Assembly (NCBI GenBank): GCA_964629735.1
Contig: CAZVQX010000001.1
Location: 86,984 to 150,983, forward strand
Reading direction: 5' to 3'
Source of the DNA: an uncultured Muribaculaceae bacterium
GTDB taxonomy: Bacteria > Bacillota_I > Bacilli_A > RF39 > UBA660
Length of the DNA stretch: 64,000 nucleotides
Position 1 is the stretch's first letter. Each line of letters opens with the position of its first letter. Position numbers and translations under genes: made by a program. Positions 2,461-35,779 of the stretch are shown piece after piece. The notes below the pieces were generated by a model. The model saw only the letters and a program-made list of their open reading frames with translations. It searched no databases and was not told the DNA's origin.

Positions 2461-2537
2461 GGGTGATTAGCTCAGTTGGTTAGAGCACCTGCCTTACAAG
2501 CAGGGGGTCGTAGGTTCGAGTCCTACATCGCCCACCA
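2461..2537 (+). tRNA. tRNA-Val (anticodon TAC)
   Basis: Cloverleaf folded by hand. Acceptor GGGTGAT/ATCGCCC, anticodon loop CTTACAA, encoded CCA. Confidence 0.85.
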
Positions 2538-2538
2538 T

Positions 2539-2614
<76 letters not shown>

Positions 2615-2616
2615 GT

Positions 2617-2700
2617 GGAGGGATAGCGAAGTGGTCAAACGCGGCAGACTGTAAATCTGTTCCTTCGGGTTCGATGGTTCAAATCCATCTCCCTCCACCA
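2617..2700 (+). tRNA. tRNA-Tyr (GTA), class II with long variable arm
   Basis: Acceptor GGAGGGA/TCCCTCC, anticodon loop ACTGTAAA, variable arm TTCCTTCGGGTTC, CCA. Confidence 0.85.
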
Positions 2701-2714
2701 TTAATATTTGACCT

Positions 2715-2789
2715 TGCCTCGTAGCCAAGCGGTAAGGCACCACACTTTGACTGTGGCATGCGCTAGTTCGAATCTAGCCGAGGCAGCCA
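2715..2789 (+). tRNA. tRNA-Gln (TTG)
   Basis: U1-A72 start typical of Gln, D-arm TAGCCAAGCGGTAAGGC, anticodon loop CTTTGAC, CCA. Confidence 0.85.
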
Positions 2790-2797
2790 TTTTATAT

Positions 2798-2873
2798 GTT
2801 CCGTTAGCTCAGTAGGTAGAGCATTTGACTTTTAATCAAAGGGTCACAGGTTCAAATCCTGTACGGGACACCA
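2798..2873 (+). tRNA. tRNA-Lys (TTT)
   Basis: Acceptor GTTCCGT/ACGGGAC, anticodon loop CTTTTAA, CCA. Confidence 0.85.
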
Positions 2874-2878
2874 CTTAT

Positions 2879-2968
2879 GCCTGAGTGGCGGAATAGGTAG
2901 ACGCACAGGACTTAAAATCCTGCGAGACGCAAAATCTCGTGCCGGTTCAATTCCGGCCTTAGGCACCA
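2879..2968 (+). tRNA. tRNA-Leu (TAA), class II
   Basis: Acceptor GCCTGAG/CTTAGGC, anticodon loop CTTAAAA, long variable arm, CCA. Confidence 0.85.
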
Positions 2969-2988
2969 TTTATAATTAATTTTTAGTT

Positions 2989-3079
2989 GGAGAAATACCC
3001 AAGTCTGGCTGAAGGGGTCGGTCTTGAAAACCGAGAGGTCGGAAACGACGCGGGGGTTCAAATCCCTCTTTCTCCGCCA
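2989..3079 (+). tRNA. tRNA-Ser (TGA), class II
   Basis: Acceptor GGAGAAA/TTTCTCC, anticodon loop CTTGAAA, long variable arm, CCA. Confidence 0.85.
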
Positions 3080-3093
3080 TAAAAATTTAACAT

Positions 3094-3170
<77 letters not shown>

Positions 3171-3173
3171 TAA

Positions 3174-3249
3174 GGTCCCGTGGTGTAGCGGTTAACATGT
3201 CTGCCTGTCACGCAGAAGATCGCGAGTTCAATTCTCGTCGGGACCGCCA
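3174..3249 (+). tRNA. tRNA-Asp (GTC)
   Basis: Acceptor GGTCCCG/CGGGACC, anticodon loop CTGTCAC, CCA. Confidence 0.85.
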
Positions 3250-3254
3250 TTGTT

Positions 3255-3330
<76 letters not shown>

Positions 3331-3345
3331 TTAATATTTGAATAT

Positions 3346-3422
3346 GCGCCCGTAGATCAATTGGATAGATCGTTTGACTACGGATCAAAAGGCTATGGGT
3401 TCGACTCCTATCGGGCGCGCCA
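3346..3422 (+). tRNA. tRNA-Arg (ACG)
   Basis: Acceptor GCGCCCG/CGGGCGC, anticodon loop CTACGGA, CCA. Confidence 0.85.
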
Positions 3423-3424
3423 TT

Positions 3425-3501
3425 CGGGAAATAGCACAACTTGGTAGTGCACTTGGTTTGGGACCAAGGGGTTGCAGGTTCAAATCCTGTTTTCCCGACC
3501 A
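3425..3501 (+). tRNA. tRNA-Pro (TGG)
   Basis: C1-G72, acceptor CGGGAAA/TTTCCCG, anticodon loop TTTGGGA, CCA. Confidence 0.85.
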
Positions 3502-3506
3502 TCTTT

Positions 3507-3583
3507 GGGGAATTAGCTCAGTTGGCTAGAGTACCTGTTTTGCACGCAGGGGGTCAAGGGTTCAAGTCCCTTATTCTCCACCA
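3507..3583 (+). tRNA. tRNA-Ala (TGC)
   Basis: G3:U70 identity pair, anticodon loop TTTGCAC, CCA. Confidence 0.85.
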
Positions 3584-8011: not shown

Positions 8012-10504
8012 ATGAAGTTTTTAAGGCGGATATTTGATTATGAATATAAAGAAATGCAAAAATTTTATAAAATAGCCGATGAAATAGAAAAACTAGATAA
8101 TGTTATGAGTCGTCTTAGTGATGAAGAATTAAAAAATAAAACCTTTGAATTTAAAGAACGTTTAAATAATGGTGAAACTCTAGAGGATATAAAAGTAGAA
8201 GCTTTTGCGGTAGTTCGTGAAGCAGCATATCGAGTAATAGGTGAAAAACCTTATTATGTTCAAATCGTTGGTGGTTTAGCAATTCACTATGGAAATATAG
8301 CTGAAATGAAAACAGGTGAGGGTAAAACATTAACTTCAACTATGCCTGCTTATCTAAATGCTTTAACTGGAAAAGGAGTTCATATAATAACCGTTAATGA
8401 TTATTTGGCTAGCCGTGATGCTGATTGGATGGGAAATATATATCGCTTTTTAGGTTTGAAAGTAGGCGTTAATAATCGAGATTTAACATCACAAGAAAAA
8501 CAAGAGGCTTATAATGCTGATATTTTATATTCTACAAATAACGAAATTGGTTTTGATTATTTAAGAGATAATATGGTTGTTCGTAAAGAAGACCGAGTTC
8601 AACGTGAACTTAATTTTGTTATAATAGATGAAGTTGATTCAGTTTTAATTGATGAAGCACGTACACCTTTAATTATATCCGGTGGTTATTTACATTCGGC
8701 CAATTTATATAAACAAGCTGATCGATTTGTAAAAACATTAACAGAAGATAATGGTTATATTTATGATGAAAAAACAAAAGCAGTTGCTCTTGATACTAAA
8801 GGAATTGAATTAGCTGAAAAAAGTTTTGGTTTAAAAAATTTGTTTGACTTAAATAATACAACAATTGTTCATTATATTAATCAGGCCTTGCGTGCCAATT
8901 ACGCAATGAAAAGAGATTTTGATTATGTAGTCGAAAATGGAAAAGTTGTAATTGTTGATCAATTTACTGGAAGATTGATGCATGGACGAAATTATTCAGA
9001 TGGTTTACATCAAGCTATTGAAGCAAAAGAAAATGTTGAAATAGGTGAAGAAACTAAAACGTTGGCAACTATCACATTCCAAAATTTATTTAGAATGTAT
9101 AAAAAAATAGCTGGTATGACTGGTACTGCTAAAACTGAAGAAGAGGAATTTCGCGAAATATATAATATGTATGTTATAACTATTCCGACTAATAAAGAAG
9201 TAATTCGAGATGATTTAGTTGATTTAATGTTTGGTAATCAAAATGCTAAATACCGTGCTATTATTCAAGAAATAAAAAGAAGACATAATACTGGTCAACC
9301 AATTCTTGTTGGTACGATTGCTGTAGAGACTAGTGAATTAATTAGTTCAATGTTACGTAAAGAGGGAATACCCCATGAAGTTTTAAATGCTAAAAATCAT
9401 GCTCGCGAAGCTGAAATAATTGCAAAAGCAGGTCATAAAGGTTCAGTAACTATTGCAACTAATATGGCCGGCCGTGGAACTGATATAAAATTAACAGATG
9501 AAGTAAAAAAAATGGGTGGATTATGTGTTTTAGGGACAGAAAGACATGAATCTCGCCGAATTGATAATCAGTTAAGAGGTCGTTCTGGTCGTCAAGGAGA
9601 TCCCGGTATATCACAATTTTATGTATCATTTGAAGATGAATTAATGGTTCGGTTTGGTACTGAAAAAGCGCGTGATTTATTAGAAAAATTTGGTTTTGAT
9701 GAGGATGTTCCTATTCGTCATTCAATGTTTGGAAAAATGGTTGAAACAGCACAAAGAAGAGTTGAAGGTAATAACTTTGATATTAGAAAAACTCTATTAC
9801 AATATGATGATGTTGTTAATCAACAGAGAATGATAATTTATGAAAAACGAAATGAAATATTAGATAGCGATACTATTTATGATTCATTATTAAATAATTT
9901 TATAAATTATGTAGAAGATTTAGTTTTAAGCCATTTGGTTGATTCCAGCGAATTAACTGAAACTGATTTATCTGAAATATTAGAAGCAGTTAACACCAAA
10001 TTGTTAAAACAACCTATTAAAATCGAAGAAATAAGAAATAAAAAAGATGAAGAAATTATTGAATTGTTGTATGAGAAAATATCAAATGAATATGAAGATA
10101 AAGTTAATAATATTCCAAATGAAATAAGACAAGAGTTTGAAAAAGCAATATCACTTCGTGTCATTGATACATATTGGATGGAACATATTAATACAATGGA
10201 GCATTTAAAAGAAGGAATACACTTGAGAGGATATGCACAAGAGGATCCTTTAAGAGCTTATACAAAAGAAGGTTATGAAATTTTCGATAATCTTTTAAGC
10301 GTTATAGATAGGGAAACAACTGTTTATTTATTAAATGCAGAAATAAGACAAAATATCGAGAGAAAAAAAGTAGTTGATTCAGAAATTACAAATGAAGCTG
10401 ATAATACAGCTAAAAGAACCCCAAAAAAGGTAAATAAAGTTGGCCGAAATGAGCCTTGTCCTTGTGGAAGTGGACAAAAGTATAAAAATTGTTGTGGAAA
10501 GTAG
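8012..10504 (+). CDS. secA: Preprotein translocase ATPase SecA
   Basis: 830 aa. Walker A MKTGEGKTL, DEAD-like motor, and a C-terminal zinc finger CPCGSGQKYKNCCGK. Confidence 0.97.
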   Translation: MKFLRRIFDYEYKEMQKFYKIADEIEKLDNVMSRLSDEELKNKTFEFKERLNNGETLEDIKVEAFAVVREAAYRVIGEKPYYVQIVGGLAIHYGNIAEMKTGEGKTLTSTMPAYLNALTGKGVHIITVNDYLASRDADWMGNIYRFLGLKVGVNNRDLTSQEKQEAYNADILYSTNNEIGFDYLRDNMVVRKEDRVQRELNFVIIDEVDSVLIDEARTPLIISGGYLHSANLYKQADRFVKTLTEDNGYIYDEKTKAVALDTKGIELAEKSFGLKNLFDLNNTTIVHYINQALRANYAMKRDFDYVVENGKVVIVDQFTGRLMHGRNYSDGLHQAIEAKENVEIGEETKTLATITFQNLFRMYKKIAGMTGTAKTEEEEFREIYNMYVITIPTNKEVIRDDLVDLMFGNQNAKYRAIIQEIKRRHNTGQPILVGTIAVETSELISSMLRKEGIPHEVLNAKNHAREAEIIAKAGHKGSVTIATNMAGRGTDIKLTDEVKKMGGLCVLGTERHESRRIDNQLRGRSGRQGDPGISQFYVSFEDELMVRFGTEKARDLLEKFGFDEDVPIRHSMFGKMVETAQRRVEGNNFDIRKTLLQYDDVVNQQRMIIYEKRNEILDSDTIYDSLLNNFINYVEDLVLSHLVDSSELTETDLSEILEAVNTKLLKQPIKIEEIRNKKDEEIIELLYEKISNEYEDKVNNIPNEIRQEFEKAISLRVIDTYWMEHINTMEHLKEGIHLRGYAQEDPLRAYTKEGYEIFDNLLSVIDRETTVYLLNAEIRQNIERKKVVDSEITNEADNTAKRTPKKVNKVGRNEPCPCGSGQKYKNCCGK

Positions 10505-10512
10505 GGATTTTA

Positions 10513-11328
10513 ATGAATGAAATGAAAAAAATGAAAAGAGTATTATTGATTGTAATTGGAGTTATTGTATTTGTGCCTGTTGCAATGTATGCAAAATATT
10601 TAAAAGGTGAGAAAATTATTGAAGGAGTTAATGCTATTTTTGGTAATGATAAAATTAATTTAGTATATATAGGTAGTAGAAATTGTGGGCATTGTGAAAA
10701 TTTTAACCCAGTAATAGAATCAGCTTCCAAAGAATACGATTTTGAATATTATTATATTGATATAATGAATTTAACAGATGGTCAATTTGATAGATTAATG
10801 AAAAAATTTTCGATTGACCCTAGTAGTTTTGGAACCCCATATATTTCAGTAATTGAAAAAGGTAAAAAAGTTAATGAGAAAAAAGGCTATGTTGAAAGAG
10901 AAGATTTATTAGTATTTTTACAAGAAAATAAAATGGTTAGTGAAGATATAAAAATTGAAAGAAGTGATGATGCGTTAACTATAATAAATGTTGATAAATA
11001 TTTTGAATTATTAAAAAGCAATGTTAATACAGTTATAGTTTATGCTAGTTCTTCATGCCCAGCATGTATATATGCAAAACCAATAATAAATGAAGTAGCA
11101 AAAGAAACCGGTGCAGTGATTAATTATTTAGAATTAGATAAAATAGAAGACGAAGAAAAATATAAAGCTCTTATTAAATCTATAGAAGATTTGAATATTG
11201 ATGTTGAAGAGTTTGGGACCCCAACTCTAATTATTGTTAATGATAGTAAAAAAATTGATATACAAATTGGTGCTTTAACAAAAGAAGAATATGTAAAAGT
11301 TTTTAAACAACATAATATTATAAAATAG
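10513..11328 (+). CDS. Membrane-anchored protein with two thioredoxin-like domains (CGHC and CPAC)
   Basis: N-terminal transmembrane helix, then two paralogous Trx-fold modules (LVYIGSRNCGHCENF...FGTPYISVIEKG and VIVYASSSCPACIYA...FGTPTLIIVND). Start at the ATG at 10513. Confidence 0.55.
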   Translation: MNEMKKMKRVLLIVIGVIVFVPVAMYAKYLKGEKIIEGVNAIFGNDKINLVYIGSRNCGHCENFNPVIESASKEYDFEYYYIDIMNLTDGQFDRLMKKFSIDPSSFGTPYISVIEKGKKVNEKKGYVEREDLLVFLQENKMVSEDIKIERSDDALTIINVDKYFELLKSNVNTVIVYASSSCPACIYAKPIINEVAKETGAVINYLELDKIEDEEKYKALIKSIEDLNIDVEEFGTPTLIIVNDSKKIDIQIGALTKEEYVKVFKQHNIIK

Positions 11329-13147: not shown

Positions 13148-13624
13148 GTGAAATATATGTATAAAATATATACGGTTAAAAATTCAGATACAATAATTTC
13201 AATTGCAAATAAGTTACGAATTACCCCTGATGAACTGCGTAAAATAAATGGTTTCCCAAGAAGTTATGAAGTAAAAGTTGGAGAACAAATAATAATACCA
13301 TCAGTAAGGGTAGAGCCTTTTGATGTATATATTGTAAAAAAAGGTGATACGTTGTATGGAATTGCACAATTGTATAAGTTAAGAGTCGATGATTTAGCCA
13401 AGTTAAATGGGATAGAAAAAGATGATTATCTTTATCCTGGTCAAGAGTTAATAATTCCTAAAGAAAATATATCGTTTTATATAACAAAAGATGGTGATAC
13501 AATTCGTACAGTTGCTTTAGAATTGAAAGCAACACCAGCTGAATTGATAGTAGAGAATGAATTAATCTATTTATTACCAAACCAATTGATAATTTATTCA
13601 AAAACAACAACAAATAAGGAGTAA
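13148..13624 (+). CDS. Protein with three LysM peptidoglycan-binding repeats
   Basis: Three repeats of the LysM signature (YTVKNSDTIISIANKL..., YIVKKGDTLYGIAQLY..., YITKDGDTIRTVALEL...). Confidence 0.7.
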   Translation: MKYMYKIYTVKNSDTIISIANKLRITPDELRKINGFPRSYEVKVGEQIIIPSVRVEPFDVYIVKKGDTLYGIAQLYKLRVDDLAKLNGIEKDDYLYPGQELIIPKENISFYITKDGDTIRTVALELKATPAELIVENELIYLLPNQLIIYSKTTTNKE

Positions 13625-13709
13625 TATTTACTCTTTTTTTGATTAAATGTTTTTATGTCTTTTTTTTTTTTAATATATATTATATAATTAAATAGGAGGA
13701 TTGTATAAT

Positions 13710-14120
13710 ATGAAAAAATTAACAGTAATATTATTATTAATAATTTTAATGGTAGGTTGTTCTTATAAAAAACCTTATATAGAAATTAAATATGATGAAT
13801 TTACAAATAAATTGGAAAATAAAGAATCTTTTATTTTTTACATAGGATCATCAACTTGTTCTTTTTGTGATAGATATGATGTAGCTTTAAAAAAAGTTGT
13901 TGATAAATATGAAGTTGAAGTTTATTATATAGATACAAATCTTAAAAAAATAGGTAAGGATAATTATAAAAATTTATCAAATATAATTAATTTTAGTGGT
14001 ACGCCACATACTGTTTTTATTAAAGATGGTGAAATTAGTTCTAGTTATAATTCTATCGAGGGTGCCGTAAGTTCTGAAAAAATAATAGAAGCTTTTAAGA
14101 GAAATGGTTATATAAAATAG
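13710..14120 (+). CDS. Thioredoxin-like lipoprotein (CSFC active site)
   Basis: Lipobox LMVGC. FIFYIGSSTCSFCDRYD...FSGTPHTVFIKDG is paralogous to the two domains of the 10513 gene. ATG at 13710 lies 10 nt after AGGAGG; the track start at 13701 is TTG. Confidence 0.55.
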   Translation: MKKLTVILLLIILMVGCSYKKPYIEIKYDEFTNKLENKESFIFYIGSSTCSFCDRYDVALKKVVDKYEVEVYYIDTNLKKIGKDNYKNLSNIINFSGTPHTVFIKDGEISSSYNSIEGAVSSEKIIEAFKRNGYIK

Positions 14121-14144: not shown

Positions 14145-15149
14145 ATGGAAAGAATAGAAATTTTTAATGACGATATTTTTGAAGAAAATAACAACATTAC
14201 TAATAATATAAGCGTTATTAATACTTACGGTGAGGTTTTAACTGACAAAAAATATATTACTAATCCTGCTATCGCCCGTGATAGTGAAATAAAAAAATTA
14301 ATTATAATATTATTAACGCCTGAAAAATCTGGTTTATTAGTGGGAAAACCAGGTATTGGTAAAACTGCTATTGTAGAAGGTTTAGCATATTTAATTCAAA
14401 GAGGTGAAGTACCTGATGCCTTAAAAGGGTATAAAATAATAAAAATTAATTCCACATCATTAGTTGGCGTTGTTAATATTGATGGTAGAGAAGAATTATT
14501 AATGAATGTCTTTGTTGATGAAATTAAAAAGTTAGAAAAAACAATTATTTTTATTGATGAAGTTCATACTTTAATTGGTGCTCGTGGTTCTGGCCCAATG
14601 GATTTAGCCAATATGTTAAAACCTGCATTGGATCGAGGTGATGTCAAAGCAATAGGCGCAACTACTACAATTGAATATAATACATATATTATTCGAGATA
14701 GAGCTTTTTTAAGAAGGTTTGAAAAAATAGATGTTTTAGAACCGGACGAAGCAACAACAGTTGATATATTGATGGGGACTATTCCAAAAATTGAGAAACA
14801 GACTGATGTAAAATTTAAATATAATGATTATATTACAAAACAATTAGTTGAATCAATTGTCAGTGCGACTTCTGAGTTTAAAAGAATTTATGGTTTATCT
14901 GCAATGTATCCAGATGTTGCGTTTTCTGTATTAACTCAAGCTTTTTCTCAAGCATTATATCAAAACAAAAAGGAAGTTGATATTGTTGATGTATATAATG
15001 CTATAAAAACAAGTAAAAGGATTTATCCTGACAGTATAATTAAAGAACTAGATGCATTTCGTCAAAAATTTAAAAAATTTCTTGAAGAAGAAAAAATTGC
15101 TTTACCAATTGTAAAACTTGAAGATATAAAAATAGAGGAAATGATATAA
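14145..15149 (+). CDS. Stand-alone Clp/Hsp100 D1-type AAA+ ATPase domain protein
   Basis: LLVGKPGIGKTAIVEGLA (Walker A), IIFIDEVHTLIG (Walker B), sensor and arginine-finger region GATTTIEYNTYIIRDRAFLRRFEKIDVLEP. Collinear with ClpA/ClpB D1, but lacks the N-domain, D2 and the ClpP-binding loop. Confidence 0.6.
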   Translation: MERIEIFNDDIFEENNNITNNISVINTYGEVLTDKKYITNPAIARDSEIKKLIIILLTPEKSGLLVGKPGIGKTAIVEGLAYLIQRGEVPDALKGYKIIKINSTSLVGVVNIDGREELLMNVFVDEIKKLEKTIIFIDEVHTLIGARGSGPMDLANMLKPALDRGDVKAIGATTTIEYNTYIIRDRAFLRRFEKIDVLEPDEATTVDILMGTIPKIEKQTDVKFKYNDYITKQLVESIVSATSEFKRIYGLSAMYPDVAFSVLTQAFSQALYQNKKEVDIVDVYNAIKTSKRIYPDSIIKELDAFRQKFKKFLEEEKIALPIVKLEDIKIEEMI

Positions 15150-15201: not shown

Positions 15202-15729
15202 ATGGAAAAAAGAAAAGTTCCTTTTATAAATTATATAATTTTAGGCATAATTGTTATTGTAACAATGATGATTACTTTTAATTTTGCAAATAAGTATAAG
15301 AAAAAGATTGATTCTCTAGAACGGTACTCACCTCTGCATGATATATTATATTTTCTTAAAATAGAAGAATTAGATAATTATTTATTGGAAAATCCAAATA
15401 TCGTTATTTATTTAGTGAGTGATGATATTAATTTTGAAATTAATAATAACATTAAGGAATTAGTTATTAATAATAATTTAAAAGATGATATAATTGCTAT
15501 AGATATCACTAAATTTACTGATCAAGATTTTGATAAGTTAAATAAAAAAATGTCAACAAATTTAACAAAAGAAAACATTAAAATAGAAAATTATTCTAAT
15601 TTTATTATAATAAGGGATAGAAAAATATATGAATTATTATACAAAGATAAGGTAGATATAAGATATAATGATTTATTAGCAAATGATTTATTATGTTTTT
15701 TAAAAAAACATGAGGTAATTGAAGAGTGA
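15202..15729 (+). CDS. Membrane-anchored hypothetical protein; degenerate (Cys-less) paralogue of the neighbouring thioredoxin-like proteins
   Basis: N-terminal transmembrane helix. The IVIYLVSDD...NFIIIRDRKIYELL pattern aligns with the Trx-like modules but carries no CxxC. Confidence 0.3.
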   Translation: MEKRKVPFINYIILGIIVIVTMMITFNFANKYKKKIDSLERYSPLHDILYFLKIEELDNYLLENPNIVIYLVSDDINFEINNNIKELVINNNLKDDIIAIDITKFTDQDFDKLNKKMSTNLTKENIKIENYSNFIIIRDRKIYELLYKDKVDIRYNDLLANDLLCFLKKHEVIEE

Positions 15730-16232
15730 TAAATGTTGTTTTATATGCACCTGAAATTCCTGGTAATACTGGAAATATTATGAGGACATGTGCAGGTACT
15801 GGTGTTAATTTACATTTGATAAAACCATTTGGTTTTTCATTAAGTGAAAAAATGATTAAGCGAAGTGGTGTTAATTATATTGATAAATGTAACTATTACA
15901 TATATGATGATTTTGATGATTTTGTTAGTAAAAATAAAGGTGATTATTATTTTTTAACAAGATATGGTAAAAATAATTATTGTAAGTATAATTATAGTAA
16001 TAAAGAAAAAGATATTTATTTTATTTTTGGTAGCGAAAGTAGTGGTATTCCAAAAAAAATTTTGAAAGCTAATATTGATAAATGTATACGTATTCCCATA
16101 AACAATAATATTAGAGCATTAAATTTAGCTAATTCGGTCAGTGTTATGGTTTTTGAGGCTTTAAGGCAGCAAAATTTTGAACATTTATTAAATAGTGATC
16201 CTTTTAAGGGAGAAGATTATTTAGAAAAATAA
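15726..16232 (+). CDS. trmL: SpoU/TrmL-family tRNA (cytidine/uridine-2'-O)-methyltransferase
   Basis: VVLYAPEIPGNTGNIMRTC...IFGSESSGIP...RIPINNNIRALNLANSVSV, the SPOUT knot motifs. GTG start overlaps the upstream stop. Confidence 0.75.
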   Translation: MINVVLYAPEIPGNTGNIMRTCAGTGVNLHLIKPFGFSLSEKMIKRSGVNYIDKCNYYIYDDFDDFVSKNKGDYYFLTRYGKNNYCKYNYSNKEKDIYFIFGSESSGIPKKILKANIDKCIRIPINNNIRALNLANSVSVMVFEALRQQNFEHLLNSDPFKGEDYLEK

Positions 16233-18281: not shown

Positions 18282-18716
18282 CTAATCGACATCAACATAT
18301 GTATCTCTTAAACATCTAATTGCGCATATACAATCTAAATTCATAGTGAATATAGAATTGGTAGGCTCATATTTTTTGCCGGGCTTATTGCATGAAACTA
18401 AGACTCTAAAAGTAGCACAGTTGTCACTTATTTTTTCAACCCTAAATACACATGATTTTGGTGATGTACTAGTACAAGAATCGCTTTCTTTAAAAACTGG
18501 CATAGCCCAAGGTGTCCCATTTCCGCAACAAGTATAAATCATTATAGGTCTAGTATTGAAAAAATGACAAGGTTCTAAATCACCAAGAAAAGCTTTATCG
18601 CAACTATCTAAGCATTTATCCGTTTTTTTGCTCTTGCTTTGTAGTAAGCATATAATGGTTAATATTTCTGCAATACAATTATTGTCTTTTGGTTTGTTTT
18701 GACACATAAAATCCAC
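18282..18716 (-). CDS. CotY/CotZ-family cysteine-rich spore coat/exosporium protein
   Basis: Cys-rich, 144 aa. CVFRVEKISDNCATFRVLV and NLDCICAIRCL align with B. subtilis CotZ FFRVERVHGSCATLSLL and VDLDCFCAINCL. Confidence 0.5.
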   Translation of the reverse strand: MDFMCQNKPKDNNCIAEILTIICLLQSKSKKTDKCLDSCDKAFLGDLEPCHFFNTRPIMIYTCCGNGTPWAMPVFKESDSCTSTSPKSCVFRVEKISDNCATFRVLVSCNKPGKKYEPTNSIFTMNLDCICAIRCLRDTYVDVD

Positions 18717-29358: not shown

Positions 29359-29907
29359 GTGGTTTTTATGTTGATATCAATTTTATTAATTGCAGTAGCA
29401 GTTAGTACTGATGCTTTTTCTCTTGCGTTAATATACGGGACTATAAGAGTTAATCAACATCAGTCCATTTTGTTATCATTAACAACTGGAATATTTCACT
29501 TTTTTTTACCATTGTTAGGCAGTTTATTAGGTAATAATCTAATTGCAATGTTTCATATAGAGATGAAGTTTGTCATAGCGTTCATTTTGTTTATTGTTGG
29601 AATTAGTATGATTAAATCAAAAAATGAGACCGATTGTTTACCTATATCACTATATTTCAGTGAAATGATATTATTTGCTTTAGCGGTTAGTTTTGACAGT
29701 TTATTTGTTGGTGCGGGACTTGATGCACTAAATTATAATAAATTGTTTATTTCTTTAATATTTTTTATTGTTAGTTTTATATTTACCATGTGTGGTATTA
29801 GTTTGGGTGGGAAGATTGAAAAAAGGATCGGCAGGATTGCAACTTTTATTGGTGGGATTATTTTGATACTATTGGGTTTGTACTGGTCTTTTTTTAAAAC
29901 TTTTTAA
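29359..29907 (+). CDS. DUF204/MntP-family membrane protein (YtaF-like)
   Basis: STDAFSLAL motif duplicated (VSFDSLFVGAGL), six transmembrane helices. Confidence 0.5.
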   Translation: MVFMLISILLIAVAVSTDAFSLALIYGTIRVNQHQSILLSLTTGIFHFFLPLLGSLLGNNLIAMFHIEMKFVIAFILFIVGISMIKSKNETDCLPISLYFSEMILFALAVSFDSLFVGAGLDALNYNKLFISLIFFIVSFIFTMCGISLGGKIEKRIGRIATFIGGIILILLGLYWSFFKTF

Positions 29908-30987
29908 TTTTATAATAATGGCTGTTATTAATGTAATTAAAAACATAGTTAATGATATTACATAAGGGAAAAAACTTTTTGCTAAGCTCATAGTTATAAC
30001 CGAACTAAAAAGAAAATAATCTCTAATTTTTAGTGTAATTATAGCTATAATTATAAGTAATGTTATATTGTATTTTTTAATTTTAAAATTTTGTTTGAAA
30101 TAAATTGATAAATAATAAAGATAAACACATATTGAAATATACATATTAAAAATCCAAAGGAGGGAGAAAATATTTTCAGAGTTTTCTAAAAAACCTGTTA
30201 TTTTAATTTTTTTCATAACATAGTACGATGGAAAACGATATATATCAGCTAGATCAGCTCCAATGATGTTAATAACTGTAAAGGTTACATATGTTAGTAA
30301 TAAAGTGGAACCAATATATCCAAATATAATATACTTGCTTAATTTTTCTTTGTTGATAATATTGTTTTTAGGTATTATTGTTAATAATAATAGTGCTGGA
30401 ACTGTATAAAATAAAAATTGTAACGACGATTTTAAAAGTGGGAATAGTCCGTCATTTAATAGAGGAAAAATATTACCTATTTTCATATATGATAAGAGAG
30501 ATATAGCAATAATAATATTAAAAATTATAGTTATATAAAATAAAATTTCTGAGCTTCTCGCAATAGTCTCAATGCCTTTATAAGTAGAATAAATGATTGG
30601 TATAAAGAATAGTATTCCCACAAAAAGTGGTGGCGTACCGATTAAATATTTTATTTCTGTAAAATTAGTTAATAGCCAAATTGTAAATATTAATAATATA
30701 AATGTACAAGTTGTTAAAAGTGCATTTATAATAGAACCCCCAATTTTTCCAAATAAATGATTAATTTTTTCAATAATATTTTTATCGGGCTCATAATTCA
30801 TAATATAAATTATTAATAATAGTGGTATAAGACCTATTAATGCACTAACTAATACAGCTAACCATGCATTTTGTTTAGCACTTTCATACAAAAACACTTC
30901 AGATACACCTTGAAATAAGCTACTGCTAATAAAAAAACAAATAAATGCGATTTGAAGGGCTGTGATTTTGTTGTTTTTAACAATCAT
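29869..30987 (-). CDS. gerAB: Spore germination protein, GerAB/amino-acid-permease family
   Basis: Ten-helix permease-like protein, downstream in the gerAA-gerAC-gerAB arrangement. Confidence 0.7.
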   Translation of the reverse strand: MIVKNNKITALQIAFICFFISSSLFQGVSEVFLYESAKQNAWLAVLVSALIGLIPLLLIIYIMNYEPDKNIIEKINHLFGKIGGSIINALLTTCTFILLIFTIWLLTNFTEIKYLIGTPPLFVGILFFIPIIYSTYKGIETIARSSEILFYITIIFNIIIAISLLSYMKIGNIFPLLNDGLFPLLKSSLQFLFYTVPALLLLTIIPKNNIINKEKLSKYIIFGYIGSTLLLTYVTFTVINIIGADLADIYRFPSYYVMKKIKITGFLENSENIFSLLWIFNMYISICVYLYYLSIYFKQNFKIKKYNITLLIIIAIITLKIRDYFLFSSVITMSLAKSFFPYVISLTMFLITLITAIIIKLKSFKKRPVQTQ

Positions 30988-30988
30988 T

Positions 30989-32185
30989 TTATTTCTCCTT
31001 TACCGATTTTAAAGCTGAACCTTTTTTTGTTAATCTATAATTAACTTTTACTTCATATTCAATATTTTTAAATAAATTATCCCATTGGCTTTTATGTTCT
31101 TTCCAATATTTATAATTAAAGCGGTATAGATACTGCCCAAAACCAAAAACATCACTGTTAAGCTCTTTTTTTGCTTTTTCAACAGTTTCTTTTACTATTT
31201 TTTTAATCTCGTTATTTATACCGATTTCCATTTTTTTTCTTTCTTCAACTGACTCCATATTTATGTCGCAATTCAATTCAGATTGAACTGCGTCACCGTT
31301 AATTTCGATTGTAACAAAAGGTTTATTGTTTTTAATTTTAACATTTATTTTACTTTTATTATTTAAAATTCCCATAGAGGCGTAATTTTCATTATCGCAT
31401 TTGAAGGATAGTTCACTTTTTTTTAAATTACCAGTTATCAGATTGTAGGCTAGAGTTTCTTTTTCATTTAAATAACCAACTAATTTATCTTTTTTAAAAA
31501 CTCCAACCCCGCCTATCTTTAACAGTACTTTTGGGATAGAGCTCATGGTATTTTCTTCAGTGCGTCCTTCTTCTATGTTACCATTAATAATAATTGTGGG
31601 AATGATCATTTCAATTCCATTAGCAATTTGACGTGCCAGCAATTCGTCGAAAGTAACGATATAACTTGTTCCATAATTATTAATAATATTTTCTGTACTA
31701 TCCATTATGTCCTGTGCAGGTTGCTCTTCAATAGGGGTTAGTATTGTTAAAATATCATCGGCATCATTTTTTTTTGACATCATAACGTTAAATTGCTTTC
31801 TAGATTCTGGACTTCTAACTAAAAAATCAATAAAATCATTAACGCCTTCTATACCAATGCTTTCATCTAATATAAATAAATTTGTATGGCCTATATAAAT
31901 TTGTTTTGGTGTTAGTTCGGTTAGTTTTTTTAAGGCTTCGTGAAAAGTTTTGCCTTTTGAAGTTAAAGTTGTAATTGGCATTTTAGATGTGGAACCTGTT
32001 GATGAACCATCGCTACTCTCCTTTTTGGTTGACATAATTTGAACCGTAATAATAAAATTGTCATTATCTTTGCTAATGGCAATTGCGGAAGCGAGAGATA
32101 TATCATTAAGTTCGCGATAATTCCAACAACCACTTATGAATAATGAAATAGTAAATAAGTATAAAATTTTTTTCATTATATTCAT
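30989..32185 (-). CDS. gerAC: Spore germination lipoprotein, Ger(x)C family
   Basis: Lipobox ISGC and a Ger(x)C-like domain. Its stop overlaps gerAB. Confidence 0.7.
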   Translation of the reverse strand: MNIMKKILYLFTISLFISGCWNYRELNDISLASAIAISKDNDNFIITVQIMSTKKESSDGSSTGSTSKMPITTLTSKGKTFHEALKKLTELTPKQIYIGHTNLFILDESIGIEGVNDFIDFLVRSPESRKQFNVMMSKKNDADDILTILTPIEEQPAQDIMDSTENIINNYGTSYIVTFDELLARQIANGIEMIIPTIIINGNIEEGRTEENTMSSIPKVLLKIGGVGVFKKDKLVGYLNEKETLAYNLITGNLKKSELSFKCDNENYASMGILNNKSKINVKIKNNKPFVTIEINGDAVQSELNCDINMESVEERKKMEIGINNEIKKIVKETVEKAKKELNSDVFGFGQYLYRFNYKYWKEHKSQWDNLFKNIEYEVKVNYRLTKKGSALKSVKEK

Positions 32186-33642
32186 TATATATCACCAACC
32201 TTTTGATTTGGTGCTTTTATCATCCTAGCGCCTTTTTTGTTGTATTTCCTCTTAAATGTTAGAAATATATTATTACCTATATTTTGAGTAACTAATGGAG
32301 CATACCCTGATAAAAAAGGCGTTCCAAATGAATTGATACTTGAAATGTTTGCAATAAATAAAAAGCCAACCGCCACAATTCCAACAAATCCAGAACTAGC
32401 AGCCCCGATTAAAAAAATTATTCTCCAAAATCTGGTTGCATAAGCTGCATCTAGATAGGTTAAAATTAACCCACTAATAGATGTCATGGCAATAACAATT
32501 ACCATTATTGGTGAGACAATGCCTGCTGTTACTGCTGCATCACCAAGCACTAGCGCACCAACAATTGATAATGAATTTCCAATTGTACTAGGAGCTCGTA
32601 TGTCCGTCTCCCTTAAAATTTCGAAAGTTAAAATCATTGATAAGGCTTCAAAAATTGCTGAAAAAGGCACACCGTCTCGCTGGGTTGAAAAATTTATTAA
32701 AAGTGCTGGCGGAATAGTTTCGTGATTATATGTTGTCATAGCAATGTAAATAGCTGGCAGAGTTAATGTTGTTAAAAAAGCGATTACTCTTATTATTCTA
32801 TTTACTGTAGCATTTAATGGCCGATTATAAAAATCTTCTGGTGAGTGAAAGAAGTCATTTGCAACAACTGGTATAATTGCTGCAAATGGTGTGTTTTCTA
32901 ATATAATTGCAATTCTACCATTTAAAAGATGTTGTGCAACAAAATCAGGCCTTTCGGTTGTTTGATAATTTGGAAATACATTTTTTTCATTAGCTGAAAT
33001 TAGTTCGATAATTTGTTGAACATCATAAACTGCTTCGATATTGATATTATTTATTTTATCTGTTATTGTGTCAACTATATTTTGGTCAGCTAAATCTTCA
33101 ATATATATAACCGCTGTCTTACTATTCCCTAGTGTTCCAACTGTGCTTTCTTTAATTTTTAATTTTGGTGTTTTTAGTCTTTTTCTAATTAATCCAATAT
33201 TTGTTTGATAATTTTCAATAAATGAATCTTTCGGTCCTTGAATAGTTCGTTCATTTGCGGATTCGACAATCGCGCTACTTAATTTTGATTTTGCTTCGAT
33301 ACCGATGCACTTTTGATTTTTGTCTACTAAAACAATAACAAACCCATTTAATAAATTTGAAATTATTTTACTTTTATCATCAATTATTGTACTTTTATGA
33401 GTAGGAGTGTTTGTATATAAAAAATCGATAAATTTTTTTGATTTTTTATAGTTGATTTCATATGATAAATATTCTAAAATAAAATCATTTATGAAACTGC
33501 TATCTATTAAAGTTTCTATAAAAACAACTGCGACATTGTTTGTGCCAACCATAAAATTTTTAATAATTAAATCTGGTACTTCGTTAAGCGAGTTCTTTAT
33601 TTCAGAAATATTTTGGTAAAGATTTTTACTTATATTATTCAT
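32185..33642 (-). CDS. gerAA: Spore germination protein, GerAA family
   Basis: Soluble N-terminal domain plus a C-terminal five-helix membrane domain typical of GerAA/KA. Confidence 0.8.
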   Translation of the reverse strand: MNNISKNLYQNISEIKNSLNEVPDLIIKNFMVGTNNVAVVFIETLIDSSFINDFILEYLSYEINYKKSKKFIDFLYTNTPTHKSTIIDDKSKIISNLLNGFVIVLVDKNQKCIGIEAKSKLSSAIVESANERTIQGPKDSFIENYQTNIGLIRKRLKTPKLKIKESTVGTLGNSKTAVIYIEDLADQNIVDTITDKINNINIEAVYDVQQIIELISANEKNVFPNYQTTERPDFVAQHLLNGRIAIILENTPFAAIIPVVANDFFHSPEDFYNRPLNATVNRIIRVIAFLTTLTLPAIYIAMTTYNHETIPPALLINFSTQRDGVPFSAIFEALSMILTFEILRETDIRAPSTIGNSLSIVGALVLGDAAVTAGIVSPIMVIVIAMTSISGLILTYLDAAYATRFWRIIFLIGAASSGFVGIVAVGFLFIANISSINSFGTPFLSGYAPLVTQNIGNNIFLTFKRKYNKKGARMIKAPNQKVGDI

Positions 33643-33762: not shown

Positions 33763-33826
33763 AGAAGTATATTATATAGGCCCTTGATTTATTTGAGTGT
33801 ATATTATTAAAAGTAGGAGAGATTAT

Positions 33827-35779
33827 ATGTTTAATAAAAAAAATGGTTTTACTTTAATTGAATTGTTAGGGGTTATTGTTGTTATATCATTGATTATGTT
33901 GATTATTACCCCGTTAGCAACAAGAGTGATTAAAGATACTGAGAAAAGGACTTTTGAAAGAAGTATTTATGGCCTTATGAGGGCAGCGGAAGTAGAAAAG
34001 AAAAATATTGAGTTTGATAATCCTAATATAGGAAAAATTATTTTTTCTTATAATAATGGTAATGAAATTTCTAGTTTTAGTGGTGCCAAATTAGATTATA
34101 GTGGTAAAAAACCACATAGTGGTAATTTAGTGATTAGACAAGATGGTAAAATAAATCTATCTTTTTATAAGAATGGTTGGTGCGCGAGTAAGGATTTTGA
34201 CAGCTCTGATGTTATGATTGTACAAGGTTTGGAAGAAGAATGCATATCGGGAATTGTTTTTGCGGTGATTGAATTAAATGGTGAAGAGTTAGTTAATGTT
34301 GAAATTAATTCTGAATATAACGATCCTGGTGTTATTGCTAAAACGAATAAAGGACATGCTATAGAAAATATAATCACAGAAATAACTTATAAAAAAAATA
34401 TTGTGTCTTCTGTAGATGCTTCTAAGTTAGGGACTTATAATATTAAATATTCGGTTGAGTATGAAGGCGTTTTGATAAGTACTGATAGGAAGGTTATTGT
34501 GAGAGATACAGTACCACCAGTTTTAAATGTACCTGCTGATATTGAAATACCAATTTCTTATGTTGATAGTTTTGATGTTTTAAAGGATGTTAGTGCATCG
34601 GATAATAGTTTGGAAATGGTCGATGTAATTGTTAGTGGTAATATAAGTAAATTACCTGGTGAATATATAATTACATATAGTGCAAAAGATTCCTCAGGTA
34701 ATGAGACAATAGTAAAAAGAAGAGTAAAAGTTGTTGATACATCAGCACCATTATTAACTCTATTAGGTCAGAATCCGCAAATAGTAAAAGTAAATGAAGC
34801 GTATATTGAATATGGTGCAACAGCGATTGATGATGTTGATGGTGATATAAGTTCTACAGTAATAAAAACAGGAACGGTTAATAATAAGGTTGTAGGGACA
34901 TATGAAATAACATACAAAGTAACTGATACATCAGGTAATACAACAACAAAAATAAGGACGGTAAAGGTCATTGATGATATAGCCCCAATATTAACCTTAT
35001 TAGGTCAAAATCCATATTCGATGAGGACTGGCCAAGTATATAATGATGCAGGTGCAACTGCGGTTGATAATGTTGATGGTGATATAAGTTCGAAAATTCA
35101 AACAACGGGTACCGTTAATGTTAATATTGAAGGAGTATATAAAATCACATATACTGTTAAGGATAATGCTGGTAATATAGCAACGGCGGTGAGAACTGTT
35201 AACGTAGATAGTACCTTACCGACGATAACTTTTAGTCTGGGTGGTAATGCTACTTATGCGAAAAGTCATAGTACTAAAGTTACAGTTAGCGATTCGATTA
35301 GTGGAATAAATTCTAATAGTTTAAAATATGTTTGGACTCAAAGTACGACTCAACCAAGTGAAGCTGATTTTAAAAATTCTTTTGGCAACGGTGGTACAGT
35401 TTATACTCCAAGTAAAACAACAGGTAGCTATTATCTTTGGGTAATTGCTAAAGATAATGCTGGTAATACTAAAATTCAAAGAAGTAATATCTTTAATATA
35501 GATAATACTCCACCTGTCATAACTTTAAATGGAGCATCGACCATATATTTGGATCTTGACGAATATTTTATTGATAGGGGTGCGACGGCGGTTGATAATA
35601 TAGATGGTGTAATTCCGGCAAATTTATCCCCTTTTAGTGAAGAGGTAAATACACACAAAGAAGGTATATATAAGTTACTTTATACTGCAACTGATAGTAG
35701 TGGGAATACGGCTGAGGCAGTAAGGACTGTATATGTTGGTTGTGTTAGGGATCCTAAAACAGGTTTATGGAATTGTTAA
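33827..35779 (+). CDS. Prepilin-type (type IV pilin-like N-terminal methylation domain) protein with six tandem Ig-like (DUF5011/HYR-like) domains
   Basis: Class-III signal peptide MFNKKNG|FTLIELLGVIVVISLIMLII (Gly-1, Phe+1, Glu+5). Tandem ~80-aa repeats follow, carrying the GATA.D.VDGDIS...G.Y.ITY...D.SGN signature. Start moved to the ATG at 33827 after AGGAGAG. Confidence 0.6.
   Translation: MFNKKNGFTLIELLGVIVVISLIMLIITPLATRVIKDTEKRTFERSIYGLMRAAEVEKKNIEFDNPNIGKIIFSYNNGNEISSFSGAKLDYSGKKPHSGNLVIRQDGKINLSFYKNGWCASKDFDSSDVMIVQGLEEECISGIVFAVIELNGEELVNVEINSEYNDPGVIAKTNKGHAIENIITEITYKKNIVSSVDASKLGTYNIKYSVEYEGVLISTDRKVIVRDTVPPVLNVPADIEIPISYVDSFDVLKDVSASDNSLEMVDVIVSGNISKLPGEYIITYSAKDSSGNETIVKRRVKVVDTSAPLLTLLGQNPQIVKVNEAYIEYGATAIDDVDGDISSTVIKTGTVNNKVVGTYEITYKVTDTSGNTTTKIRTVKVIDDIAPILTLLGQNPYSMRTGQVYNDAGATAVDNVDGDISSKIQTTGTVNVNIEGVYKITYTVKDNAGNIATAVRTVNVDSTLPTITFSLGGNATYAKSHSTKVTVSDSISGINSNSLKYVWTQSTTQPSEADFKNSFGNGGTVYTPSKTTGSYYLWVIAKDNAGNTKIQRSNIFNIDNTPPVITLNGASTIYLDLDEYFIDRGATAVDNIDGVIPANLSPFSEEVNTHKEGIYKLLYTATDSSGNTAEAVRTVYVGCVRDPKTGLWNC
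34304..35776 (+). repeat. Tandem ~240-bp intragenic repeats encoding the Ig-like domains
   Basis: For example, 34741-34980 and 34981-35220 are visibly similar at DNA level. Confidence 0.6.

Follow-up and report, generated by a model that had tools for sequence, protein, structure and literature searches.

A D1-only Clp-type AAA+ ATPase gene and its family in uncultured gut and digester Bacilli

The DNA analysed here (the window) is a stretch of 64,000 nucleotides from an uncultured bacterium labelled Muribaculaceae, placed by GTDB in the RF39 lineage of Bacilli_A (GenBank assembly GCA_964629735.1, contig CAZVQX010000001.1, forward-strand positions 86,984 to 150,983). On its + strand, at 14145..15149, the list of open reading frames (ORFs) has an ATG-initiated gene for a protein of 334 amino acids (aa): a Clp-type AAA+ ATPase consisting of a single module, of the type that forms the first nucleotide-binding domain (D1) of Clp/Hsp100 proteins. 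Its relatives fall into two groups, A and B, and the 334-aa protein belongs to group A. The identical protein is called as a gene on five independent contigs, so it is not an artefact of assembly or of a frameshift, and homologues of 315-345 aa are collinear with it from end to end. The gene is intact and probably functional, and the clade of single-module AAA+ ATPases to which it belongs is uncharacterised.

The first-pass annotation of this locus had proposed a protein with D1 alone, carrying Walker A and B motifs and a sensor/arginine region and lacking the Clp N-domain, the second nucleotide-binding domain (D2) and the loop that docks onto ClpP; both parts of that description hold. The motifs it quoted are all present: GKPGIGKT (residues 67-74), IIFIDEVH (134-141), GATTT (171-175) and RDRAFLRRF (184-192). 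Affinity for Clp D1 was confirmed by domain annotation: a Pfam scan of the protein found the AAA core alone (PF00004, residues 64-184), with no match to Clp_N, AAA_2, ClpB_D2-small or AAA_lid_9, and the NCBIfam models of ClpA, ClpB and ClpV aligned through their D1 part alone (model positions ~150-440; E values 1e-49 to 1e-52), scoring 178, 168 and 167 bits against respective cut-offs of 993, 1232 and 885. The top sequence matches in the PDB (phmmer) were to D1 of ClpB (1e-42), then ClpE, ClpA, ClpC and Hsp104, with query residues 39-316 aligned to ClpB 177-447 and 40-301 to ClpA 186-443; these alignments start at the linker between N-domain and D1 and finish where the D1 small subdomain does, or with helix 1 of the ClpB-type middle domain (M-domain). 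An AlphaFold2 model, built from a 50-sequence alignment (mean predicted local distance difference test score, pLDDT, 81.4; predicted template-modelling score 0.78), has the Clp D1 fold: in Foldseek it superposes on D1 of ClpC, ClpB and ClpA with E ~1e-19 and template-modelling (TM) scores of 0.63-0.72.

What is missing is equally clear-cut. When the full 866-aa ClpB encoded at one of the fetched loci (L038) was compared with the window by tblastn, its residues 177-443, which are D1, matched at 14247-15068, and its N-domain, M-domain and D2 gave nothing above chance in any frame of the 64 kb. The polypeptide has one AAA module and not a tandem D1 and D2. In place of the double-repeat Clp_N domain, which is also missing from ClpL, the model has only 22 disordered residues ahead of the linker. 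There is no M-domain of the ClpB/Hsp104 type: the protein covers only ~20 residues of the stretch that aligns with M-domain helix 1 (ClpB ~430-447) before it stops, and the model shows just a short terminal helix (residues 295-315). Direct reading of the 334-aa sequence found no ClpP-docking tripeptide of the form [ILMV]G[FL]. As a D1-type ATPase with no N-domain, D2 or ClpP loop, the protein should not be the partner of a protease, as the first-pass annotation had also suggested.

From the N-terminus, the protein begins with an acidic, Asn-rich disordered tail (residues 1-22; 14145..14210; pLDDT 35-36) that varies across the family and is its least conserved block (0.58-0.61); in some relatives (P0121-P0144) it is swapped for low-complexity extensions of 300-700 aa. 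Residues 23-200 (14211..14744) comprise the N-D1 linker motif (YGE.LT...NPAI.RD) and the large alpha/beta AAA+ subdomain, as judged from the alignment to ClpB 177-340, the model and Foldseek. They contain Walker A (67-74; 14343..14366), whose K73 corresponds to ClpB K212; Walker B, IIFIDE (134-139; 14544..14561), whose D138 and E139 correspond to ClpB D278/E279; sensor-1, GATTT (171-175; 14655..14669); and the tandem trans-acting arginines R190/R191 (14712..14717), equivalent to ClpB R331/R332. In an alignment of 50 sequences covering groups A and B (A1), G67, G72, K73, T74, D138, E139, T173, T174 and the pore-loop residue G114 are invariant, and R190/R191 are near-invariant (at least 90% conserved). 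The complete AAA+ catalytic set (Walker A lysine, Walker B Asp-Glu, sensor-1 and arginine fingers) is thus present, from which ATP hydrolysis is predicted. In ClpB, the corresponding arginine pair of the first domain is needed for both oligomerisation and activity (PMC4239642). The alpha-helical small (lid) subdomain follows at residues 201-316 (14745..15092), with model helices at 202-315 (pLDDT 81-96), conservation of 0.82-0.96, and alignment to ClpB 340-447 and to ClpA up to 443; its last helix aligns with the first M-domain helix of ClpB, and it has a YPD motif (P256 invariant) where Clp proteins have 'LPDKAID'. A short, acidic and family-variable C-terminal tail (317-334 plus the stop codon; 15093..15149) ends the protein, with pLDDT falling to 40 and conservation to 0.64-0.70.

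The two loops expected to line the pore depart from the Clp pattern, and they are the only internal low-confidence stretches of the model. The pore-loop-1 equivalent, VGVVNIDGREE (107-117; 14463..14495; pLDDT below 50 at 108-111), places Ile112 opposite ClpB Y251, the Clp D1 pore-loop tyrosine, and retains the loop glycine, Gly114. The conserved KYRG of Clp D1 is therefore absent: group A has E/N-I/V-N/D-G instead, with Ile or Val at the tyrosine position in the window's own sub-clade, Val or Thr in a sub-clade of 316-aa proteins that has a further two-residue deletion here, and an aromatic residue anywhere in the segment in just one of 184 group-A sequences. Nowhere in the AAA core is conservation lower than in this segment (0.72-0.81, compared with 0.84-0.99). 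The pore-loop-2 equivalent, GARGSGP (145-151; 14577..14597; pLDDT below 50 at 146-150), is two residues shorter than in Clp D1 and group B ('GAGxxx'), as seen in the motif table and the clade logos.

The first-pass annotation had called such a protein an orphan and stand-alone D1 modules uncommon; within this lineage, neither is so. A word-indexed search recovered more than 120 clusters at 90% identity from the protein's own sub-clade alone (316-359 aa, 66-86% identity), from metagenome-assembled genomes (MAGs) of 'Mollicutes/Bacilli bacterium' and labelled, if at all, 'AAA family ATPase' or, automatically, 'ClpA/ClpB'. Searching 1.84 billion representatives exhaustively brought up 18,439 matches, mostly true Clp proteins, in which ~130 of the top 150 representatives at 50% identity are single-D1 proteins; hundreds of homologues of 315-345 aa exist. 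The sister form of 315-316 aa within group A is very abundant, on hundreds of contigs: one such protein (P0360) occurs on 232 contigs of up to 1.3 Mb and in 424 index blocks, another (P0316) on 218 contigs. No description of a D1-only Clp protein family was found in the literature searched.

Group A, comprising proteins at least ~48% identical to the query, is marked in the motif table by a Walker A of the form GKPG[IV]GKT, the lack of an N-domain and a core of ~315-345 aa, by a short non-aromatic loop in place of the Clp D1 'AGAKYRGEFEER', and by a two-residue deletion in the 'GAGxxxG' segment (pore-loop 2) after Walker B; the 334-aa protein has all of the group's distinguishing traits (this Walker A, the short non-aromatic loop, the deletion after Walker B, an LLTPxKS motif and no N-domain). 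Some members (P0121-P0144) carry an Asn/Gln/Pro/Tyr-rich low-complexity extension of 300-700 aa at the N- or C-terminus, and such fusions were confirmed as single called genes on contigs (loci L046 and L049). Group B proteins are 35-47% identical to the query and longer (~500-530 aa), with a pore loop in most members of the form 'GCxY/FxGxFEER', Tyr or Phe being kept, and an extra N-terminal domain of ~190 aa: this is a Clp_N domain, diverged in sequence yet structurally clear.

In a neighbour-joining tree of 144 D1 regions with 30 bootstraps, group A is monophyletic in all 30 and nests inside a paraphyletic group B; mean identities are 0.63 within group A, 0.37 between A and B, and 0.33 between A and canonical D1s. 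The probable ancestor of group A is the D1 ring of a class-I Clp/Hsp100 protein. The 334-aa protein is roughly equidistant from the D1s of ClpA, ClpB, ClpC and ClpE, so no parent subfamily can be named, and assignment to one Clp subfamily was dropped, the ClpA, ClpB, ClpC, ClpE and ClpV scores being too alike. The longer 'canonical' matches intended as references mostly turned out to be tandem D1-D1 proteins. Seven relatives of 770-1020 aa (P0182, P0212, P0174, P0221, P0234, P0245 and P0254) each have two matches to the Clp D1 model and no D2; these are tandem D1-D1 architectures, another unusual Hsp100 derivative, and since several of the longer relatives are built in this way, the D1 module must have undergone repeated rearrangement in the superfamily.

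Gene order links the two groups. The gene glmS adjoins or lies near the D1 gene in one group-A and two group-B lineages (L040-L042, L050, L051, L049), and mgsA/rarA lies near it in two lineages, one from each group; this shared synteny hints that the A and B genes of different lineages are orthologous by position. The evolutionary path probably led from a protein with Clp_N and D1 and no D2 (group B, ~500 aa) to group A, in which the N-domain was lost, Ile, Val or Thr took the place of the pore-loop-1 tyrosine, and pore-loop 2 became shorter.

The gene's immediate surroundings were compared across 33 orthologous loci from species-representative genomes (L005-L037). The window gene lies within a long co-directional array that starts with secA (8012..10504). 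Upstream (13148..13624, + strand) is a gene for a 158-aa protein with three LysM domains (Pfam) and no signal peptide, the most constant upstream neighbour in this sub-clade (30 of the 33 loci) and absent from other group-A lineages. Between it and the ATPase gene is one for a thioredoxin (Trx)-like lipoprotein with a CSFC motif, PedC/BrcD-like by Pfam and NCBIfam (13701..14120, +). Downstream (15202..15729, +) is a gene, often absent elsewhere, for a 175-aa single-pass membrane protein with no Pfam match and no CxxC motif, followed by one for a SpoU/TrmL-type RNA methyltransferase (15726..16232, +), the constant downstream neighbour in the sub-clade (31 of 33 loci). Across these loci the ATPase is 62-82% identical, close to SecA (77-79%) and well above its neighbours (SpoU 57-68%, the Trx-like lipoprotein 27-64%, the membrane protein 24-49%); purifying selection on the gene is clearly strong. 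Five of the loci (L009, L012, L019, L024 and L037), at 66-77% identity, come from MAGs labelled Muribaculaceae, Ignavibacteriales or Candidatus Saccharibacteria; four of these (all but L024) also show the LysM/SpoU synteny of low-GC Bacilli, and the five contigs are probably mis-binned or mislabelled.

Beyond the sub-clade the surroundings change. In other group-A lineages the gene lies between CDF transporter and GlmS genes, YitT and Tex, DUF285 and IF3, or Mbeg1 and CotJ genes; group-B members lie in yet further contexts, and no neighbour is shared family-wide (seven relatives represent these more distant contexts). A link to the signal peptidase LepB was considered and dropped: its gene is near two group-B genes and does not recur in further group-B contexts. 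No specific tie to a defence system or a phage was found: the PADLOC defence families gave matches at the generic P-loop level only (TRIP13, IetA; E 1e-8 to 1e-4), and PHROG 4871, a Clp-type profile of 764 positions, is matched through its D1 part. As to regulation, no CtsR or CIRCE operator was found near the gene, counts in the window being at chance level; no terminator-like site was found between 13000 and 17100; and promoter-like sites are no commoner than in shuffles of this AT-rich DNA. No canonical D2 was found in the ~0.53 Mb of fetched loci, a figure that says nothing on whole genomes.

Genes connected with sporulation recur in the region. The window has a complete spore-germination receptor operon on the - strand (29869..33642), made up of Spore_permease/GerAB (29869..30987), GerAC (30989..32185) and GerA (32185..33642), and a Cys-rich CotZ-like spore-coat protein gene (18282..18716, -; Pfam PF10612). 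A CotZ-like gene is also near the ATPase gene at L012, L013, L015, L018, L020, L023 and L032-L036, and CotJB/CotJC (L049) and Coat_F (L050) genes are near those of its relatives. This organism of ~25% GC appears to be an endospore former, though MAGs of its lineage are labelled 'Mollicutes/Mycoplasmatota bacterium'. Cytoplasmic LysM proteins are typical of the spore envelope proteins made by the mother cell.

Some other features of the window are recorded here as side observations. A transmembrane-anchored protein with two Trx domains (CGHC and CPAC motifs) is encoded at 10489..11328 (+); with the genes at 13701..14120 and 15202..15729 this makes three membrane-anchored or lipoprotein genes within 5 kb, suggesting an extracytoplasmic disulfide-handling set beside secA. 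Thirteen tRNA genes (Val, Thr, Tyr, Gln, Lys, Leu, Ser, Met, Asp, Phe, Arg, Pro, Ala) clustered at 2461..3583 (+) account for a local spike in GC. Finally, the ORF at 33797..35779 (+) encodes a pilin-like or pseudopilin surface protein of unusual size (660 aa), in which five bacterial Ig-like surface domains come after a prepilin-type methylation motif at the N-terminus.

The reading of the ATPase that we favour, and regard as reasonably probable, is of an intact group-A ring ATPase derived from a single D1 module, independent of ClpP, with a low-grip substrate interface and a role independent of the Trx genes. The subunits would assemble into an oligomeric and probably hexameric ring that binds and hydrolyses ATP at the interfaces between them, the conserved pair of trans-acting arginines being the one feature that points to such assembly. 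With no D2 and no IGF loop, the ring would not dock to ClpP, and with no M-domain it would not cooperate with DnaK/Hsp70 in the manner of ClpB. Because the aromatic paddle of pore-loop 1 has been lost and the loop that replaces it is specific to each sub-clade, the protein would most likely be an ATP-driven remodeller or switch that grips weakly or works non-processively, and not a processive threading unfoldase; it would recognise its targets through the lid domain or the terminal tails. Several points weigh against this reading. Isolated ClpB D1 oligomerises poorly; aliphatic pore loops can still touch substrate, as in D1 of p97/Cdc48; and the invariance of Gly114, together with the semi-conserved Ile/Val at the tyrosine position, would be compatible with weak threading. 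The split of groups A and B from canonical D1s was recovered in only 15 of the 30 bootstraps of what is a simple neighbour-joining tree, and no neighbour, regulator site or named homologue pointing to a substrate was found.

The main rival is a conventional hexameric threading unfoldase or disaggregase, in which the aliphatic Ile/Val-Asn/Asp-Gly loop would stand in for Tyr-Arg-Gly. Every ATPase motif is intact, Gly114 never varies, and each sub-clade keeps a beta-branched hydrophobic residue, semi-conserved, at the tyrosine position; moreover, one ring is sufficient for motors of the classical AAA clade, in which D1 falls, such as Vps4, katanin and FtsH, and D1 of p97/Cdc48 uses a Leu/Met-Ala-Gly loop. 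What makes this explanation rather unlikely in our view is the loop itself, which differs between sub-clades (I/V as against V/T plus a two-residue deletion) and shows the lowest conservation in the AAA core, along with the loss of the flanking Lys/Arg and of the 'FEER' motif and the shortening of pore-loop 2. In ClpA, the D1 tyrosines are critical for substrate engagement (PMC8666677). In a different proposal the protein would act on a canonical Clp ATPase or adaptor from elsewhere in the genome, whether as partner, regulator or decoy, and would co-assemble into ClpC, ClpB or ClpE rings or cap them, in analogy to partial paralogues such as mycobacterial ClpC2 or plant ClpT. Regulatory or protective roles are on record for partial Clp homologues (PMC10030653), and the arginine pair, a D1-type inter-subunit element, would allow mixed interfaces; yet identity to canonical D1s is only ~33%, the window and all fetched loci lack clp, clpP, mecA and mcsB genes, and the gene has no CtsR or CIRCE operator nearby, so that we think this improbable.

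The remaining alternatives draw on the neighbourhood and on the truncated architecture. That the protein, in this sub-clade, works with the cytoplasmic triple-LysM protein in assembling the endospore envelope would fit the near-constant LysM gene upstream (directly adjoining where the Trx gene is missing), the very short intergenic gaps with no terminator-like site in the interval, and the coat and germination genes described above; however, neither a LysM nor a coat gene neighbours the ATPase gene in the 315-316-aa sister clade or in other lineages of groups A and B, no promoter for sigma-E, -K, -F or -G was identified, and adjacency is weak evidence here because the whole region from SecA onwards is one co-directional array. 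We rate this link as quite improbable. The first-pass annotation had instead proposed a dedicated chaperone or unfoldase for the flanking Trx-like lipoprotein and membrane protein, which do flank the gene on the same strand, at gaps of 24 and 52 nt, in the window and in about half of the orthologous loci. The lipoprotein gene was, however, undetected beside the ATPase gene in 12 of the 33 loci (given as L019, L023-L029, L031-L036) and the membrane protein gene in 14, and neither accompanies the ATPase in other group-A contexts; both proteins evolve much faster than the ATPase (24-64% identity against 62-82%). The two also belong to opposite compartments, for the Trx proteins are extracytoplasmic (lipobox or membrane anchor) and the ATPase, with no signal peptide, is cytoplasmic, which leaves a chaperone role towards them unsupported. 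The term 'unfoldase' is itself weakened by the family's loss of the pore-loop tyrosine that Clp D1 rings use. This proposal is largely refuted by synteny and is now very unlikely. The gene is a stand-alone chromosomal one with a role probably independent of the adjoining Trx-like genes. The ORF might also be what remains of a full-length clp gene, as a pseudogene, a fragment or an artefact of assembly; the first-pass annotation had itself named a 5' fragment left by a frameshift or assembly error as a finding that would overturn it. The truncated architecture is all that speaks for this; the identical ORFs on five contigs, the hundreds of homologues of the same length under strong purifying selection, the fully intact catalytic residues and the absence of any D2, M or N remnant by tblastn leave it with a negligible chance, and it was ruled out.

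The D1-only family is real and widespread and has so far gone uncharacterised, although it is built from well-known components. Hsp100/Clp motors are the textbook two-ring threading machines, and the single-ring relatives known to us (ClpX, HslU, Skd3) all go back to the D2-type module; group A, abundant and strongly conserved, is a D1-only version found in nature. The graded series from Clp_N plus D1 with the tyrosine to D1 alone without it, with tandem D1-D1 proteins as a further variant, amounts to a natural experiment on what a D1 ring does by itself, and on whether some AAA+ functions can do without the pore-loop tyrosine. Members of the family are common in metagenomes of digesters and of human and animal guts, and because they are mis-annotated as 'ClpA', 'ClpB' or 'AAA family ATPase', pathway reconstructions that count them as Clp protease subunits or disaggregases are probably wrong. 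A much more tentative suggestion is that groups A and B together form a new functional class derived from Hsp100, a single D1 ring with no ClpP, no M-domain or Hsp70 link and no aromatic loops, which might act as a non-threading, ATP-driven clamp or switch. It might then be a core housekeeping factor in a large radiation of uncultured Bacilli from guts and digesters, some of them spore-forming, and might there take the place of a canonical Clp ATPase.

Among known systems, D1 of the class-I Clp/Hsp100 proteins (ClpB, ClpA, ClpC, ClpE, Hsp104) is the obvious point of reference. It shares with the 334-aa protein the fold of large and small subdomains, the N-D1 linker motif, Walker A and B, sensor-1 and the trans-acting arginines, at 30-37% identity over the full length. 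The 334-aa protein differs in having no Clp_N, M-domain, D2, ClpP loop, pore-loop-1 tyrosine or 'FEER' motif, in a pore-loop 2 shorter by two residues, in 'LLTPxKS' and 'YPD' where class-I proteins have 'RRxKNNP' and 'LPDKAID', and in falling far below all NCBIfam Clp cut-offs. Group B proteins (e.g., P0151 and P0159, annotated 'AAA family ATPase' in uncultured Bacilli) are the nearest relatives at 37-47% identity, sharing the D1-only motor, the 'LLTPxKS' signature, an origin in Bacilli/Tenericutes MAGs and, in part, the glmS/mgsA neighbours. ClpX, HslU and human CLPB/Skd3 are also single-AAA+ Hsp100 relatives that work as one ring, but theirs is a D2-type (HCLR-clade) module with an aromatic pore loop of the GYVG type, whereas the 334-aa protein has a D1 (classical-AAA-clade) module with a non-aromatic loop.

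A further comparison is with mycobacterial ClpC2, an N-domain-only homologue of ClpC1, and plant ClpT1/2, in which a single piece of a class-I Clp protein likewise stands alone with a function of its own (PMC10030653; structures 8b9o and 4y0b). The piece retained is the opposite one: ClpC2 and ClpT are Clp_N with no ATPase, the 334-aa protein an ATPase module with no N-domain. For the pore itself there are parallels in p97/Cdc48 D1 and the Torsins (PMC5425593), both non-aromatic at the pore-loop-1 position in an otherwise intact AAA+ fold. D1 of p97 is, however, stacked on an aromatic D2 ring, and the 334-aa protein has no second ring. Torsins, for which threading of substrates is considered unlikely (PMC5425593), are Clp-related and lack aromatic pore loops, as does group A, but they have no arginine finger of their own and need cofactors, whereas the 334-aa protein keeps its own arginine pair.

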